The translations under genes and the position numbers were made by a program. Below the pieces are notes generated by a model. The model did not search any database. It saw nothing but the letters and a program-made list of their open reading frames with translations, and had not been told where the DNA came from. Positions 2,728-45,262 of a DNA stretch of 64,000 nt are shown piece by piece. The stretch lies in assembly GCA_964539905.1 (NCBI GenBank), contig CAZIJW010000016.1, positions 606 to 64,605 of the forward strand, written 5' to 3'. Source of the DNA: an uncultured Robiginitalea sp. (lineage in GTDB: Bacteria > Bacteroidota > Bacteroidia > Flavobacteriales > Flavobacteriaceae). Positions within the stretch are counted from its first letter, which is position 1. The number at the start of each line of letters is the position of its first letter.

Positions 2728-5700
2728 TCGCGGTAGACTTTATAGGTGGTTTCCCTGCCCTTCTGGGTGACCCGCAACAGGTACAGGCCTGTGGGTAATG
2801 CCCCAAGCTCCAGGCGTACCCTCGCGTCCGAGTCGGGCAGGCGTCGACCCTTCCAGACCAGTGCGCCGGCAGCGTTGAAAACCGCAATATCCACAGGTCC
2901 ATCGGGCCTGGGGACAATGAGTTCCAGGGCTTCGGTAAAAGGGTTGGGCGATAGCAGGGGTTGATCGGCCCGAAGGAATTCCGCTTCATAAGATCCCCTG
3001 CAGGCGGGAATACCTTCTACCCTTAGCTGGTTGAACCCCTTTTCCAGTTCCAGGGTAAACACCGGACCCTTAACCGTCCGGGAGTTGCCATTGAGGGTTA
3101 CTTCAAACAATTCCGCCCCGTCGAGCAGCAGTTCCACCGAGGAGTAGTCCGGGGCGGCAAAGGCCTGCACGCTCAACGGATCAGGGCTGCCGATGACTAC
3201 CTGGAAACACTGGGGCTCATATGCGTTGGCCCCGTCGCTGCCCCCGAGGCACACCTCGTAGGATCCCGGGCGCAGCCCCTCAACGTCGTAGGTGGTGGTG
3301 AAGCCCTCCGACAGGTTGGTGCCGTTGCCCGTTACCGCTATACTATAGTCAAAGGATTGAGAAGCGGTTACCGCTATAGAACCATCGCCTGCCCCGATAC
3401 AGCTTTCCGTCGACACCAAAATTTCAAACCGGTCCGATGGGAAGCGCAGTACCTCACAGCCATTGGCGTCCACCTCAGCCCCGGGGGGCGTGCCCGGGCA
3501 CAGGTCGTCGCCGTCATCGAAAACCCCATCGCCATCCTCGTCGGGCCTGAAGGCGCCTTCCACGCATAATTCAAGGGAAAAGCCCAGGAGTTGCCCCCCG
3601 TCATTGTCGGCCCCGTCTTCGATGGTGAGGACCCATTCCCCAAAACTGGATTCCCCCACAAAGGAATTCAGGGAACCCGAGGGCCTTACGGTCCCGGAAA
3701 TAGCGGGGTTGTTGGCACATACGAAAGGGGGTGCCTCTGAGTCGAAGGTGGCATTGATGTCGTTGGCCTCCCCACAGGCGTTCGAGACAAGGGTCACACG
3801 GGTCCCCTGGGGGGAGGTCAGGCTGATCACGAGGTCGGCCAGGTAGCTGTGGGTGAGTTCGAGGTTCACCTTCACCCCTAACAGGGGCCGGTTGTCGGGG
3901 ATGGTCAGGGAGGCGGTCACCGTTGGCGTACCCGTGGCCGGGATCGGTACCGGCAGGCCTGAGGCAGTGAGGGTTTTGCAATCGGACTGCAAGGTGCTGA
4001 AACTGAACGGGGTGCCGAAAACCCCTTCGCCGCAGGCGTTCAGGGGCCTGATCCTCCAGAAATACACCGTGTTTTCCTGCAGCCGTCCCGGCGCATAACT
4101 CGTAGTGTAAACGCGCTGGCTGGCGATCGGGCTGGCAAATGTAGGCTCTGTGGCCAGTTCCAGGTCATAGGCGGTATACTCCGTTGCCCCTTCCCACTCA
4201 AGCAGCGGAAAGAGCCCCACTTCCTCGGCCGCATCCGCCGGGGAAAGCAGCGTTGCCGGCCGGAAAGCCCCGCTGCCCAGGCGCACTTCCAAAGGGACCG
4301 ATACCGTTGTAACCCCGTCGATTCCGATAACTTCGAACGGATAGGTTCCCGCAGGCACGGAGTCGGTATTGCTCAGGGTGAGGCGTAACCGGGTGTCATC
4401 GACCTGCACGGTATCTACGGAAAAGGTTGCCTGAAGGCCTTCCGGAAGGCCGGTAACGCCGAGGGCCACAGGCTCCTCAAAGCCCCCGAAGGTCTGGTAG
4501 GTAAAATCGAAGACGGCATCTGAAGGCTGGCAGGCCTGGGCCTGCAGGGCATCGAAATACAGGAGGAACGGCCGTTCGGCGATTTCGAAATCCGTACTAT
4601 TCAGCGCAAAGAAAATATTATCCGCTGCCCGGACCACAAACCGCCCGGAGGGGGTGGGCACCCTGGGGATTTGCACGCGGGCCGATCCGGTATTCGGAAG
4701 GTTGGAAGCGATCTTCAGGGGGAAGCTCAGCCCTCCGTCAGCGGACAGGTAGAGGTCCACCAACTGGGCATTGATGGGGGCGCCACCGGTGCCGGCCACA
4801 TCCCAGGATACCTCCTGCACGCTCCCCATTTCGAATGTTTCCGCCTGCGATTGGGAGAGCACCCGGAACGGGCCCGCATCTTCCCTGACGGTAACGGTCG
4901 ACACTTCAGAGGTGACCTGCCCGCCCCCGGGGGCATTGTCGCGGACCGTCAGTGCAAAATTCAGCTCCCTCCCAATGGTGGCGACCGTTTCCCATGCCGT
5001 TCCCGGCAGGGGGTCGGTCTGGGTGAGGTTGCCCGAGGCCACCCGGCTGAGCAGGGGGAAAAACCGCCTGGGCTCCGTCACGGGCCTGCGCGAGCGAAAA
5101 TTTGCCCCCGCCGGATTCTCCGGGCCAAAAGAGTCCCGGGTGACGACGCCGTCATCGATCTGCTCCCAGGCATAGGTAAGGACGTCTGTCGGGTTGGCAT
5201 CCGTGGCGGCCCCTTCCAGGACGAAAGCCGTCCCCCGGGGGATCACAAAATCGGGGACCGGGGTGATCACCGGGGGGGTATTGGCCAGGGGGGTCAGGGC
5301 CGCACAACTGGTGCCCGAAACGTACTGGCTGATCTGCAAGATGCTGTAATAATGGAAATAATCATCGCCCACCGATTGCACATCGTCATTTTGGGTGATC
5401 CCGGCATACCCCATGATGGTGGACCCGCTGCCTGGCTCGGCCTGTACCCCCGTGCCCTCCGACTGAAACGACCAGGTGTGGTTCGCCCCCAGCTGGTGGC
5501 CCATTTCATGGGCGACAAAGTCGAGGTCGAACCGGTCCCCTTCGGGCGTTACGTTCCGGGCAAAGGCACTTCCCTTGCGGCCATCGACGCAGACCGATCC
5601 GATAAAGCCGGCATTCCCGGAGTCGCCCCCCTGGTCGAAGAGGTGGCCGAGGTCATACTCCGGGGCCCCGATGAGGGAGTCCAGTGCCTGTTGTACCTCG

Positions 5701-41354: not shown

Positions 41355-42257
41355 ATGCTGAAAATCGCCTTCCACCCGCTTTACACGCACCCCCTCCCGG
41401 ATGGGCACCGCTTCCCGATGCAGAAATACGACTTGCTTCCGCGGCAGTTGCTGCACGAGGGTACGTGCCGGGCCGAAAATTTTTTCGAGCCCGGCCTCCC
41501 GGCAACGGAAGACCTGTTGCGGGCGCACCGCCAGGAATATTACCAGGCCCTCTGCGAGGGGACGCTTTCGCCCCGTGAAATGCGGAAAGTAGGGTTCCCG
41601 TGGAGCCGGGAGTTGGTCCTGCGGGAGCGCACCATTGCCCAGGGGACCATCCGGGGATGCCAGTATGCCCTGGAGCACGGCGTGGCCATGAACATCGCCG
41701 GGGGCACCCACCACGCCTATTCCGACCGGGGCGAAGCCTTCTGTATGCTCAACGACCAGGCCATAGGCGCCCATTACCTGCTGGCCCATTCCCTGGCAAG
41801 CCGGATCCTGATCCTCGACCTGGACGTGCACCAGGGGAACGGGACGGCGGAAATCTTCACCGGGGTCCCAGAAGTGTTTACCTTTTCCATGCATGGGCGC
41901 GCCAATTATCCGTTTCGAAAGGAAGCCTCCGACCGCGATGTAGCCCTGGAGCCCGGGACCTCCGACAGGGAGTACCTGGAACTTTTGGAGGGCCACCTGG
42001 AGACGCTCAAAACCGAATGGAACCCTGATTTTGTCTTCTACCTCAGTGGCGTGGATGTCCTGAAAAGCGACAAACTGGGCACCCTTGGCCTGACCCTGGA
42101 AGGCTGCCGGCAACGAGACGAAATGGTTTTCCGGTGGTGCCGGAACCTGGGGGCGCCGGTGCAATGCAGTATGGGCGGGGGCTATTCCCCCCAGCTCAGG
42201 ACCATCGTGGAGGCCCATGCAGCCACCTTTCGCCTGGCCCGGGCGCTTTATTTCTAA
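41355..42257 (+). CDS. Histone deacetylase family protein (HDAC11/class IV-like)
   Basis: HRFPMQKY, GGTHHA, FCMLND, DLDVHQGNG, GVDVLKSD, GGGY. Confidence 0.92.
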   Translation: MLKIAFHPLYTHPLPDGHRFPMQKYDLLPRQLLHEGTCRAENFFEPGLPATEDLLRAHRQEYYQALCEGTLSPREMRKVGFPWSRELVLRERTIAQGTIRGCQYALEHGVAMNIAGGTHHAYSDRGEAFCMLNDQAIGAHYLLAHSLASRILILDLDVHQGNGTAEIFTGVPEVFTFSMHGRANYPFRKEASDRDVALEPGTSDREYLELLEGHLETLKTEWNPDFVFYLSGVDVLKSDKLGTLGLTLEGCRQRDEMVFRWCRNLGAPVQCSMGGGYSPQLRTIVEAHAATFRLARALYF

Positions 42258-42380
42258 AAGCGATCCCCCCAACACCCCCCATCGAAGCAAAATGCCCGGC
42301 CGCAAGAATATTCCTTACCGGCCTGGAAGCCACACGCAGATACGGCTGGTTTTTGTACCTTTATACAAACTTTATTCACG

Positions 42381-42899
42381 ATGTTAACCGAAAAAATGGA
42401 AAAGGCCCTGAATGCGCAAATCAGGGTAGAAGCAGAGTCGTCCCAGACCTACCTCTCAATGGCCTCTTACGCGGAAGTCAAAGGCCTGGAGGGGATTGCC
42501 TCCTTCATGTACAAGCACTCCGATGAGGAACGCATGCATATGCTGAAACTCATCAAATATGTGAACGAACGGGGCGGACACGCCGTGGTTTCGGAGCTTA
42601 AGGCCCCGAAATCGGATTTCGGCTCCTTCCAGGATATGTTCCGGGAGTTGCTGGAACACGAAATCTTTGTCTCCCAGAGCATCAATGAGCTGGTACACAT
42701 CACCCTTCAGGAGAAGGACTATGCCACCCACAACTTCCTGCAGTGGTACGTGGCCGAGCAGATCGAGGAAGAAGCCCTTGCCCGGAACATCCTCGACAAA
42801 ATCAACCTGATCGGCAATGACAAGGGGGGGCTGTACCTCTTCGACCGGGACGTGCAACAGATCACCGTGGAGAGTGCCGCCGGAGCCCCCGGGGCCTAG
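42381..42899 (+). CDS. ftnA: Non-heme ferritin
   Basis: ALNAQIRVE..SS..YLSMA, EERMH, EHEIFVSQSI, NFLQWYVAEQIEEE ferroxidase residues. Confidence 0.93.
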   Translation: MLTEKMEKALNAQIRVEAESSQTYLSMASYAEVKGLEGIASFMYKHSDEERMHMLKLIKYVNERGGHAVVSELKAPKSDFGSFQDMFRELLEHEIFVSQSINELVHITLQEKDYATHNFLQWYVAEQIEEEALARNILDKINLIGNDKGGLYLFDRDVQQITVESAAGAPGA

Positions 42900-42912
42900 A
42901 CTGTTAAATTTT

Positions 42913-42931
42913 ATTTAGATTTAATTTAAAT
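42913..42931. promoter_or_regulatory. Candidate Fur box (7-5-7 imperfect palindrome)
   Basis: ATTTAGA-TTTAA-TTTAAAT; 16/19 match to the ATTTAGAATTATTCTAAAT box I recall for Flavobacteriales Fur; 3 nt upstream of a -7 element. Confidence 0.6.
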
Positions 42932-42934
42932 TGA

Positions 42935-42942
42935 TAGCTTTG
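42935..42942 (+). promoter_or_regulatory. -7 element (TAGCTTTG) for the small Cys-rich gene
   Basis: Exact consensus 21 nt before ATG 42964. Confidence 0.65.
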
Positions 42943-42963
42943 TGGGAGTCTATCCGAACTCCC

Positions 42964-43182
42964 ATGGGCAAAAAGAAGGACAAAGCGCCGGAAAAACAGC
43001 AAAAGAAGCGGGAAAAAAGGCTTAAGGAGCTTGCCCAAACCCAGTGCCCGCCTCAGGGCTGCAAGAAGAACTGCTGCAAAAAATACAAGAAGTGTGAGAG
43101 CAAACGCTGTAAAAAGTGTCCCTGCCATGATTTGCTCAAACAACTCCGCAGCACTTCCCCCGGGCTTCAGCGGGTAGCCTGA
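42964..43182 (+). CDS. Small Cys/Lys-rich protein (72 aa, 8 Cys, 19 Lys), putative metal/Fe-S binder
   Basis: Own promoter and terminator; CPPQGCKKNCCKKYKKCESKRCKKCPCH cluster. Confidence 0.7.
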   Translation: MGKKKDKAPEKQQKKREKRLKELAQTQCPPQGCKKNCCKKYKKCESKRCKKCPCHDLLKQLRSTSPGLQRVA

Positions 43183-43199
43183 CCCTTTGACCCCACGAT

Positions 43200-43224
43200 A
43201 AAAAAAGGGCTTTGCAGCCCTTTT
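43200..43224. terminator. Bidirectional terminator between the Cys-rich gene and ssb
   Basis: A7-GGGC-TTTGCA-GCCC-T4. Confidence 0.75.
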
Positions 43225-43245
43225 AACCCCCCACGCCAGAAGCGT

Positions 43246-43578
43246 TCATTTGCCCAGCAGGAGCAATTCCATGCAGCGGACCTCCGTGACATACTTTTTT
43301 TCCCCTTCAGGGGTGTCATAGGCCCTGTGGATGAGCTTTCCCTCCACGGCCACCTCCTTACCCCGGGCCAGGTAATTCTCAACAATTTCAGCGGTTTTCC
43401 CCCAGGCGACCACCTGGTGCCACTGGGTGTCCGTGACTTTCTCCCCCTTGGCATTCCGGTAGGTCTCATTGGTGGCAATGGAAAATTTCGCCAGTTTGTT
43501 CCCGCTCTCCAGGACCAGGACCTCGGGATCCTTCCCCAAATTACCGATCAACAGGACTTTGTTTCTGAGTGCATTCAT
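43246..43578 (-). CDS. ssb: Single-stranded DNA-binding protein (short form without acidic tail)
   Basis: NKVLLIGNLGKDPE, FSIATNE, TQWHQVVAWGK, VAVEGKL. Confidence 0.92.
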   Translation of the reverse strand: MNALRNKVLLIGNLGKDPEVLVLESGNKLAKFSIATNETYRNAKGEKVTDTQWHQVVAWGKTAEIVENYLARGKEVAVEGKLIHRAYDTPEGEKKYVTEVRCMELLLLGK

Positions 43579-43699
43579 AACTTAAAGGTTTACGTTCCGG
43601 GCAAAAGTCGCAGCGTATCCTGCCAAGCCAAAGCAGGGAAAAACGGATTGTATTTCCCGAATGCGTATCTTTAAGAACGCCAAAACCAAACTGCCCGTT

Positions 43700-45262
43700 A
43701 TGAAAAACCAGATCCAGACCTTCCTGATCGCACTCGCCTTGCTGCTTCCAACCCTGCCCGGGGTCCGGGCACAGGACGCGGCATCCGTCGTATCGCAAAT
43801 TGAGGCCGAAGCCACGGAAAATTCACAGTTGCAGGCGCTTGCCCATGAGCTCATGGATGTTATCGGCCCGAGGCTGGTAGGCACCCCGCAAATGAAAAAA
43901 GCCCATGACTGGGCCGTCCAAACCTTTTCTGGCTGGGGGATTGAGGCCTCCAACGAACCCTGGGGCACCTGGCGGGGCTGGGAACGGGGGATATGCCACA
44001 TCGACCTGCTGGCCCCCCGGGTGGTGTCCCTGCACGGCAGGCAACTGGCCTGGAGCCCTTCCACCCCGCCCGGGGGAATCACCGCCGGGGTCATAACCCT
44101 GCCGATTGTTGCGGATTCCCTCGCCTTTGCGCGGTGGCTCCCCCAGGCCCGCGGGAAATGGGTTTGCGTGTCCATGCCCGAGCTTACGGGGCGGCCCGAT
44201 GAGAACTGGGAGGAATTTGCCACGAAGGAATCCTTTGAAAACATGAAAAAACGCAGGGAAGCGGAAACCGCCGCCTGGCGGCAAAACCTCAGCAATACCG
44301 GGTATACGGCCCCGACGCTGAATGAAGCCCTGGAAGCCGCGGGGGCCGCGGGCATCCTGCAATCGAGGTGGTCCAATGCCTTCGGGGCCAACAAAATATT
44401 CAGCGCCAACACCCAAAAAATCCCGGTGATAGACCTGTCTTTGGAAGACTATGGCATGGTGTACCGCATGGCGGAGAACGGGGACGACCCCAGGCTTCGC
44501 ATCGTAGCGGAATCCCGGGAACTGGGCAGGGTACCTGCCTTTAATACCATAGCGGTCCTGCCTGGAACGGAGCTTCCCGATGAATACGTGGTCCTGTCGG
44601 CCCATTTCGATTCCTGGGACGGGGGCACAGGCGCTACTGACAACGGCACCGGCACCCTGACCATGATGGAAGCGGCCCGGATCCTGAAAAAAGTATACCC
44701 CAACCCCAGGCGCACGATTGTGGTGGGGCTCTGGGGCAGTGAAGAACAGGGGTTGAACGGTTCCCGGGCGTATGTGGAAGACCATCCGGAAGTCGTCTCC
44801 GGGCTGCAGGCCCTCTTCAACCAGGACAACGGCACCGGGCGGGTGGTGCGCATTAACGGGCAGGGATTCCTCCATGCCTATGCCTACCTGGGGCGTTGGC
44901 TTGCAGCCGTGCCCGACTCCATTACCCGGCATATCGAAACCACCTTTCCCGGAAACCCGGGACGCGGGGGTTCCGATTACGCCTCCTTCGTCGCACGGGG
45001 GGCCCCGGCTTTTTCCCTGTCGTCCCTGAGCTGGAGCTACTGGAACTATACCTGGCACACCAACCTGGACACGTATGACAAGATCGTCTTTGACGACGTG
45101 CGGAACAATGTGATCCTTACCGCCATCCTCGCATACATGGCGAGCGAAGACCCGGAGCGCACCTCCCGGGAACAGGCCGAATTGCCCCTGGACCCCGAAA
45201 CGGGTAAGCCGCGCGATTGGCCGACCCCCAGGGCCCCAAACCGGGAAGGCGGGAGGGAATAA
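43700..45262 (+). CDS. M28 family secreted metallo-aminopeptidase/carboxypeptidase Q-like
   Basis: GPRLVG, SAHFDSWD, GATDNGTG, GSEEQGL, GGSD, WHTNLDT. Confidence 0.88.
   Translation: MKNQIQTFLIALALLLPTLPGVRAQDAASVVSQIEAEATENSQLQALAHELMDVIGPRLVGTPQMKKAHDWAVQTFSGWGIEASNEPWGTWRGWERGICHIDLLAPRVVSLHGRQLAWSPSTPPGGITAGVITLPIVADSLAFARWLPQARGKWVCVSMPELTGRPDENWEEFATKESFENMKKRREAETAAWRQNLSNTGYTAPTLNEALEAAGAAGILQSRWSNAFGANKIFSANTQKIPVIDLSLEDYGMVYRMAENGDDPRLRIVAESRELGRVPAFNTIAVLPGTELPDEYVVLSAHFDSWDGGTGATDNGTGTLTMMEAARILKKVYPNPRRTIVVGLWGSEEQGLNGSRAYVEDHPEVVSGLQALFNQDNGTGRVVRINGQGFLHAYAYLGRWLAAVPDSITRHIETTFPGNPGRGGSDYASFVARGAPAFSLSSLSWSYWNYTWHTNLDTYDKIVFDDVRNNVILTAILAYMASEDPERTSREQAELPLDPETGKPRDWPTPRAPNREGGRE

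Follow-up and report, generated by a model that had tools for sequence, protein, structure and literature searches.

A ferritin-linked mini-protein gene behind a Fur-box-like operator in Flavobacteriaceae: a candidate ferritin helper

To our knowledge, the retrieval of iron from heme-free ferritin is poorly understood, and the only dedicated partner of an iron store that has been well described is Bfd, which works through the heme of bacterioferritin. Bfd is a small Cys-bearing protein that is induced by iron starvation and mobilises iron from bacterioferritin. Other small proteins induced under the same condition, the Fbp proteins of Bacillus subtilis, are controlled by Fur and act with the small RNA (sRNA) FsrA. 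Here we describe a gene for a 72-residue, Cys- and Lys-rich protein (the mini-protein, encoded by the mini gene) that directly follows a heme-free ferritin gene in a 64,000-nucleotide stretch of contig CAZIJW010000016.1 from an uncultured Robiginitalea sp., hereafter the window. The Flavobacteriaceae are important in marine and freshwater carbon turnover, are often iron-limited and include fish pathogens. A conserved, ferritin-linked mini-protein under a predicted iron box offers a concrete and easily testable candidate for the step in which iron is retrieved from ferritin.

We inspected 159 loci in detail and surveyed the operator region in 80 sequences (79 marine loci and the window). A ferritin gene was found directly upstream of the mini gene, on the same strand, in 144 of the 159 loci. 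A preliminary description of the locus had seen a complete mini transcription unit, and this view is supported by a promoter of its own, an operator and a conserved coding gene. The mini gene adjoining ferritin thus appears to be a separate transcription unit that encodes a real, conserved protein. Our leading reading, which we hold tentatively, is that this product is a Fur-repressed, cationic, Cys4 metal-binding protein that would act on the acidic ferritin and be analogous, not homologous, to Bfd. As judged from its sequence, the mini gene, which follows ferritin behind a conserved Fur-type site in about 150 Flavobacteriaceae genomes, is a good candidate for a ferritin helper under iron shortage.

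The mini gene and its family

The features of the locus are as follows.

41355-42257, forward strand: gene of the histone-deacetylase family
42381-42899, forward strand: non-heme ferritin gene, 172 amino acids, isoelectric point (pI) 4.97, net charge -10.9 (PF00210, E 3e-41; NF007638)
42913-42931, strand-neutral: imperfect 19-base-pair (bp) palindrome ATTTAGATTTAATTTAAAT resembling a Fur box, which spans about -34 to -16 relative to the predicted start
42935-42942, forward strand: Bacteroidota sigma-A -7 promoter box TAGCTTTG, consensus TAnnTTTG
42941-42967, forward strand: hairpin that pairs with the AUG, free energy -12 kcal/mol, z -2.65
42947, forward strand: transcription start predicted from the -7 box rule (PMC9723704), giving a 17-nucleotide (nt) leader
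42964-43182, forward strand: mini-protein gene, 72 amino acids, pI 9.98, net charge +17.5
43072-43122, forward strand: universal core C37-C38-x10-C49-x2-C52-P53 (CCKKYKKCESKRCKKCP), invariant alignment columns and presumed metal-binding site
43203-43224, both strands: bidirectional intrinsic-terminator hairpin, 9-bp stem, free energy -15 kcal/mol, z -2.8
43246-43578, reverse strand: ssb, convergent to the mini gene

The 64-nt spacer between ferritin and the mini gene holds both ATTTAGATTTAATTTAAAT and TAGCTTTG, and an M28 peptidase gene lies beyond ssb. The mini open reading frame (ORF) runs from the ATG at 42964 to the TGA at 43180-43182 and its product is MGKKKDKAPEKQQKKREKRLKELAQTQCPPQGCKKNCCKKYKKCESKRCKKCPCHDLLKQLRSTSPGLQRVA. 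Identity to R. marina (L001) is 99% for the ferritin and 89% for the mini-protein.

A search of 5.8 billion proteins returned 16 close relatives of the mini-protein, and a query from the Flavobacterium branch returned 77 from the same set. These relatives are all unnamed or labelled 'hypothetical', and none carries a Pfam domain; one relative (P0096) has been wrongly named 'altronate dehydratase' by a source. Homologs and synteny across Flavobacteriaceae had been proposed as a check in the preliminary description. GTDB pattern scans confirmed by tblastn yielded at least 116 marine Flavobacteriaceae loci and at least 254 in the genus Flavobacterium, at least 370 relatives overall. Marine carriers include Robiginitalea, Arenibacter, Muricauda/Flagellimonas, Algibacter, Winogradskyella, Formosa and Galbibacter, and many cultured Flavobacterium species are among the remaining carriers. 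When 1.84 billion representative proteins were searched with a hidden Markov model (HMM), 27 matched, all of them short relatives except three repeat artefacts, and no fusion or domain context for the mini-protein was found among the 27. The three exceptions (P0036, P0037 and P0041; 150-220 amino acids) consist of tandem NRCTDCPCFDLLAASIRKSGLEIK units, match the profile weakly and look like a translated DNA repeat.

Across 148 distinct DNAs covering a 20-codon core, entropy was 0.40, 0.42 and 1.16 bits at codon positions 1, 2 and 3, and each invariant Cys was written with both TGT and TGC. Variation at third positions and the use of both Cys codons indicate that the mini gene is under protein-level purifying selection. 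The sequence might instead be non-functional, either an ORF arisen by chance or a non-coding stretch conserved at the 3' end of the ferritin mRNA; it is short, Lys-rich and of low complexity, and it is omitted from many annotations. Start codons in the marine set were ATG in 34/80, TTG in 30/80 and GTG in 15/80, so that over half of the marine homologs begin with TTG or GTG, which could also be taken to favour a non-gene. However, besides the codon pattern just described, the amino-acid motif is kept from Robiginitalea (the window has a GC content of 58%) to low-GC Flavobacterium, and an Rfam scan of 42200-43700 returned only a chance match to a long non-coding RNA. We therefore regard a non-functional sequence as extremely improbable. 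That the gene often goes unannotated is probably due to the TTG and GTG starts of most marine copies.

The core peptide motifs CCKKYKK, CCEKYKK, KRCKKCP and CCKKFKK gave no hits in a full-text literature search, which suggests that the family is unnamed and uncharacterised, and the mini gene was not mentioned in the Flavobacterium iron and transcriptome papers searched. On sequence grounds the mini-protein belongs to a family without a name, found mostly in Flavobacteriaceae, whose members are polycationic proteins of 45-80 residues. A widespread small gene had thus been missed or left nameless.

Operator, promoter and ferritin linkage

Both elements noted in the preliminary description, the palindrome at 42913-42931 and the -7 element TAGCTTTG at 42935-42942, are present. 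Eight of the nine arm positions of ATTTAGATTTAATTTAAAT are complementary. The Fur-box consensus of Riemerella anatipestifer, ATTTAGAATTATTCTAAAT, was derived with RegPredict and electrophoretic mobility shift assays on promoter fragments (PMC5609570), and ATTTAGATTTAATTTAAAT agrees with this consensus, which is that of R. anatipestifer and not the host's own, at 16/19 positions; the 16/19 match to a Flavobacteriales Fur box given in the preliminary description was therefore correct. ATTTAGATTTAATTTAAAT is the sole site in the 64-kb window with three or fewer mismatches to the consensus, and no such site occurred in 100 dinucleotide shuffles (0/100).

Of the 80 surveyed sequences, 77 have the motif ATTTAGATTnAaTwwAAAT ahead of the mini gene, and in 72 the operator start is followed by a -7 box at a distance of 22-23 nt. 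All 77 sites share the left half ATTTAGA, G included, and in the genus Flavobacterium the variant ATTTAGAATAyTTAAAAAT occupies the equivalent place. The operator is also retained at 14 loci that lack ferritin as the upstream neighbour, which indicates that it belongs to the mini gene. As for the promoter, TAnnTTTG is no rarer in the window than chance would have it (21 found, 19 expected), so the case for TAGCTTTG is that about 150 related loci keep it in the same place. In transcription start maps of F. psychrophilum the -7 box spans -12 to -5 (PMC9723704). By this rule, the mini transcript would start near 42947 and the operator would cover -34 to -16, the classic position for a repressor. 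We rejected ATTTAGA as a -33 element: its G falls at about -29, some 4 nt off the expected TTG, and the heptamer is the half-site of the boxes found before iron-uptake genes.

Perfect copies of the consensus in Flavobacteriales precede genes for TonB-dependent receptors, imelysin, HmuY-like proteins, IscA/SufA, NqrA and AraC-type regulators, a set that, by its gene content, is the picture of an iron regulon. Only one Fur-family gene is present in F. psychrophilum (PMC9331221). When compared with the Flavobacteriales Fur regulon (ATTTAGAATnATTCTAAAT), the mini gene has a near-consensus 19-bp palindrome over its promoter (16/19) with a degenerate right half, so that the predicted regulon would reach beyond uptake genes. 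Perfect ATTTAGAATnATTCTAAAT copies also occur in an nqrA/apaG-like divergent region at L103, L108, L149, L156, L165, L175 and L193, the first four of which are labelled Flavobacteriales among the matches listed; this suggests that the operon for the Na+-translocating NADH:quinone reductase may be in the same iron regulon. The ATTTAGAATnATTCTAAAT 19-mer is not limited to these bacteria: copies in Rhizobium, Bradyrhizobium, Nitrobacter, Ancylobacter and Agrobacterium look like the Irr 'iron control element' TTTAGAA-N3-TTCTAAA, and further copies, some of them in tandem pairs, come from Paenibacillus, Streptococcus and Allofustis. Loci with the 19-mer outside the Flavobacteriales pattern include L086, L097, L125, L128, L134, L144 and L148, and this spread points to a 7-1-7 architecture that Fur-family operators may have in common. 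In five Flavivirga/Algibacter-type loci (L034, L055, L059, L060 and L062), the 5' leader of the mini gene holds a second palindrome, ATCTAAATTTTAGAT, some 20-35 nt before the start of the mini gene. Its half-sites are those of the operator in reversed order; a further operator and a hairpin in the RNA are both conceivable.

The transcript ends also fit the preliminary layout. The stretch from the ferritin stop (42899) to the mini ORF showed no terminator-like hairpin, and the terminator expected after the ORF corresponds to the hairpin at 43203-43224. This element has an A-tract/hairpin/T-tract arrangement with a GC-rich stem, only four U on its forward-strand side, and serves transcripts arriving from both sides, those of ferritin/mini and that of ssb. 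In a further hairpin, at 42941-42967, the TTTG that closes the -7 box, together with GGGAGT, pairs with ACTCCC plus the AUG. Compensatory changes affect 3 of its 10 pairs across 13 Robiginitalea-clade loci, which is modest covariation support. The AUG here pairs with sequence upstream of the predicted start, so the hairpin would be restricted to transcripts that start at the ferritin promoter and read through, and translation in the Robiginitalea clade would then depend on the Fur-controlled promoter. Hairpins of other sequence abut the ATG in L002, L005 and L080 of the same clade; they are not obvious in AT-rich genera.

Compared with the 144 loci that have ferritin directly upstream, convergent ssb was present in 97 of the 159 and the deacetylase gene stood beside ferritin in 16 of the 159. 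No other neighbour is thus linked nearly as stably as ferritin, and the ferritin-mini pair is a stable unit. In a 'Chitinophagales' metagenome-assembled genome (L281), the mini gene starts 35 nt after ferritin among neighbours that do not occur in the window (amidase, PALP-enzyme and saccharopine-dehydrogenase genes). The L281 spacer (3933-3967) lacks ATTTAGA and contains an inverted repeat, ATATCATT-N8-AATGATAT, whose arms are like GATAAT-type Fur-box half-sites.

At ferritin promoters the operator was absent (best matches with 6-8 mismatches) and a -7 box was present. Therefore, ferritin and the mini gene appear to be wired differently, as bfd and bfr are. A AATTAGACTAtTTATAAAT-type site with 5-6 mismatches to the Fur consensus lies about 85-125 nt upstream of ferritin in L061, L066, L068 and L077; among the genera compared, it is confined to Galbibacter and Joostella loci.

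Cysteine motif, charge and candidate role

Translation of the 72-residue ORF placed Cys at positions 28, 33, 37, 38, 44, 49, 52 and 54, together with His55 and 19 Lys, exactly as the preliminary description had it. This eight-Cys and His55 picture holds for the window and does not extend to the family. When Cys conservation in homologs was used as a test, four Cys proved invariant, C37, C38, C49 and C52 (CC-x10-C-x2-C; alignments A1, A2 and A3), and C28, C44 and His55 turned out to be lineage-specific features of the Robiginitalea clade. A fifth Cys, C33 or C54, is usual, and one lineage carries exactly four. In window numbering, the family-wide invariants are K34, C37, C38, K40, R48, C49, C52, P53 and D56; an aromatic residue is kept at 41 (Y/F), and the family signature reads CC-x-K-[YF]-x-K-x3-KRC-x2-CP-x-[FY]-DL. 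Family members begin with MGKKK, continue with a long Lys/Arg-rich segment (a basic helix) and the Cys core, and usually end in KVA; the window protein ends in VA. Charge is +14 to +17 in all branches, with a pI of about 10. The mini-protein (+17.5) and the ferritin subunit (-10.9) are thus oppositely charged.

Known families gave no close match. The one Pfam-A hit obtained with hmmscan, at E up to 10, was a chance match to DUF1168 (E 1.8), a scan of NCBIfam at E up to 10 returned none, and a profile search of PDB sequences with the mini-protein family was also without a match. The eight Cys within 27 residues of the Robiginitalea version, arranged as CxxxCC, CxxC and CxC with interleaved Lys, would suit a metallothionein-like buffer or store for Zn, Cu or Cd, with ferritin adjacency reflecting grouped metal-storage genes. 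However, only four to five Cys are kept family-wide and some members have exactly four, the conserved aromatic Y/F41 is unlike metallothioneins, no bacterial metallothionein model was matched, and the operator is of the iron-acquisition type rather than a metal-excess ArsR/SmtB or MerR site. The metallothionein role raised in the preliminary description is therefore disfavoured by the four-Cys signature and the Fur-type control, and we consider it very unlikely.

We propose the following sequence of events for a cationic, ferritin-acting mini-protein. When iron is plentiful, iron-loaded Fur would occupy the operator (about -34 to -16), closing the mini promoter; read-through transcripts from ferritin would still span the mini ORF, and in the Robiginitalea clade the hairpin would hide their AUG. 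As iron falls, Fur would depart and a short-leader mRNA would be made from about 42947. The four Cys of its product would bind a metal (Zn, Fe or a small Fe-S centre) around which the chain folds, and this protein of charge +17 could dock, through electrostatic attraction, on the acidic shell of ferritin, each subunit of which carries -11. Once docked, it may promote the release of stored iron or halt storage, through pore gating, hand-off of Fe2+ or delivery of electrons. A bolder form of this proposal makes the mini-protein the missing iron-mobilisation partner of heme-free Ftn, a Fur-derepressed, polycationic Cys4 metallopeptide that binds at the acidic pores, where it sets off or gates the release of the mineral core, that evolved independently of Bfd and, in Robiginitalea, came with a hairpin that silences read-through; we regard this form as doubtful.

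Several observations weigh against a Fur-repressed protein acting on ferritin. The iron and Fur dependence of the mini-protein, its bound metal and its contact with ferritin are predictions only. AlphaFold2 models had a predicted local distance difference test (pLDDT) score of 57.6 with 16 sequences and 63.4 with 60, and a Foldseek search of the model against the PDB gave 0 matches; helices were placed at 9-27, 37-43 and 54-64 and the Cys loop was placed without confidence. At this low confidence nothing can be concluded from the fold. Pairing with ferritin is not obligatory, since the mini gene is not beside ferritin at 15 of the 159 loci, and a spacer of 64 nt is a small target for rearrangement, so that the linkage may in part be inertia. 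In the operator, the right half is degenerate, lacking the C and T of TCTAAAT (C14 is found in 1 of the 77 sites), and marine genera have ATTnAAT as the inner core where AATnATT is typical of Fur-family boxes; another regulator or weak binding of Fur is possible. The operator is missing altogether at three Flavobacteriaceae loci (L057, L065 and L070) and at 'Chitinophagales' L281. These four box-less lineages have spacers of 35-54 nt, which suggests co-expression with ferritin rather than expression in starvation only. Finally, the extreme basicity of the mini-protein fits binding to nucleic acid equally well.

The short box-less spacers, consistent with co-transcription, the degenerate right half of the operator and the lack of a terminator between the two genes would all suit a constitutive accessory subunit or chaperone of ferritin, involved in its assembly, loading or core protection and required wherever ferritin is synthesised, with the AT-rich site being part of a promoter or the site of another regulator and no iron switch. 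Against such a role stand the invariance of ATTTAGA in 77 sites at 4 nt off the -33 position, the part of the same half-site in defining Fur boxes before iron-uptake genes, and a ferritin promoter that lacks the box. Moreover, the hairpin that would sequester the AUG in read-through transcripts argues against simple co-translation in Robiginitalea. We judge a constitutive accessory to be quite unlikely.

The charge of the protein bears on a different possibility, a Fur-regulated, basic, nucleic-acid-binding Cys4 protein resembling a zinc knuckle that serves as an RNA chaperone or co-regulator in iron sparing, in the manner of FbpA/B/C and FsrA, with ferritin adjacency being regulatory or historical. 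Its small size, its pI and its charge in all branches are what such a protein would have, Lys and Arg flank the Cys4 motif as they do in nucleic-acid-binding zinc knuckles, and the Fur-type operator persists together with a promoter of its own at the 14 loci without adjacent ferritin. However, no Pfam match to FbpA/FbpB or to zinc-knuckle families was obtained and no sRNA partner is known in the host bacteria. The linkage to ferritin outlasts the loss of other neighbours (144/159; L281), which would be needless for a general chaperone. An RNA-binding role is, in our estimate, unlikely, and a metallopeptide that acts on ferritin is the reading we carry forward.

Comparison with known systems

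Five described groups share features with the mini-protein or its operator. The SEC-C motif (PF02810) is likewise Lys-rich, with four Cys and a central KKYKK, and CCKKYKK...CxxCPC in the mini-protein is similar to CPCGSGKKYKKCC read backwards. This reversed order is a coincidence: there is no profile match to C-P-C-x-S-G-K-K-Y-K-x-C-C/H, and SEC-C has another context, the C-terminal tail of SecA and other proteins. Metallothioneins (SmtA/BmtA; MT1/2) are also short and rich in Cys and Lys, and share CC, CxC and CxxC with the Robiginitalea version; the mini-protein family differs in its four to five conserved Cys, a conserved aromatic residue, long basic helices and an iron-starvation-type signal. 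The bacterial metallothionein family (PF02069) has about nine Cys plus His for a Zn4 cluster, whereas the mini-protein gave no match to this profile and its His55 is variable.

The R. anatipestifer Fur box and the mini-gene site have an identical left half, ATTTAGA, and the outer right half AAAT in common; both lie less than 100 nt from a start codon and overlap a promoter of the -33/-7 type. They differ in the C/T of TCTAAAT, missing in nearly all mini-gene sites, and in the marine inner core ATTnAAT. The B. subtilis proteins FbpA, FbpB and FbpC are very small, very basic and preceded by a Fur box, as predicted for the mini gene, a resemblance that is functional only. There is no match to Fur_reg_FbpA or Fur_reg_FbpB (Pfam, E up to 10), and the Fbp proteins, partners of FsrA, have neither a Cys4 motif nor linkage to ferritin.

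Bfd (PF04324; partner of bfr in E. coli and Pseudomonas) is the closest in organisation. The preliminary description had proposed a Bfd-analogous partner, and this idea fails for membership of the Bfd family and holds for arrangement, as judged by the frequent adjacency to ferritin and the differential wiring. There is no PF04324 match and no sequence similarity (Pfam-A, E up to 10). Bfd binds [2Fe-2S] through C-x-C...C-x2-C, a Cys spacing other than the CC-x10-C-x2-C of the mini-protein; it is not polycationic, whereas the mini-protein is; and it docks above the heme of Bfr, whereas the neighbour of the mini gene is a heme-free Ftn (PF00210/NF007638). On the other side, both are Cys-bearing proteins of about 65-75 amino acids encoded beside a gene of the ferritin family, both have a Fur-type iron-repressed promoter of their own (in the mini gene, a predicted one) with the storage gene wired otherwise, and the role proposed for the mini-protein, like that of Bfd, is the mobilisation of stored iron under starvation. 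By analogy, the mini-protein and ferritin would be the functional counterpart of bfd-bfr, made up of an unrelated protein and a heme-free ferritin. If so, this partner of Ftn would be an independently evolved answer to the problem that Bfd solves for bacterioferritin.

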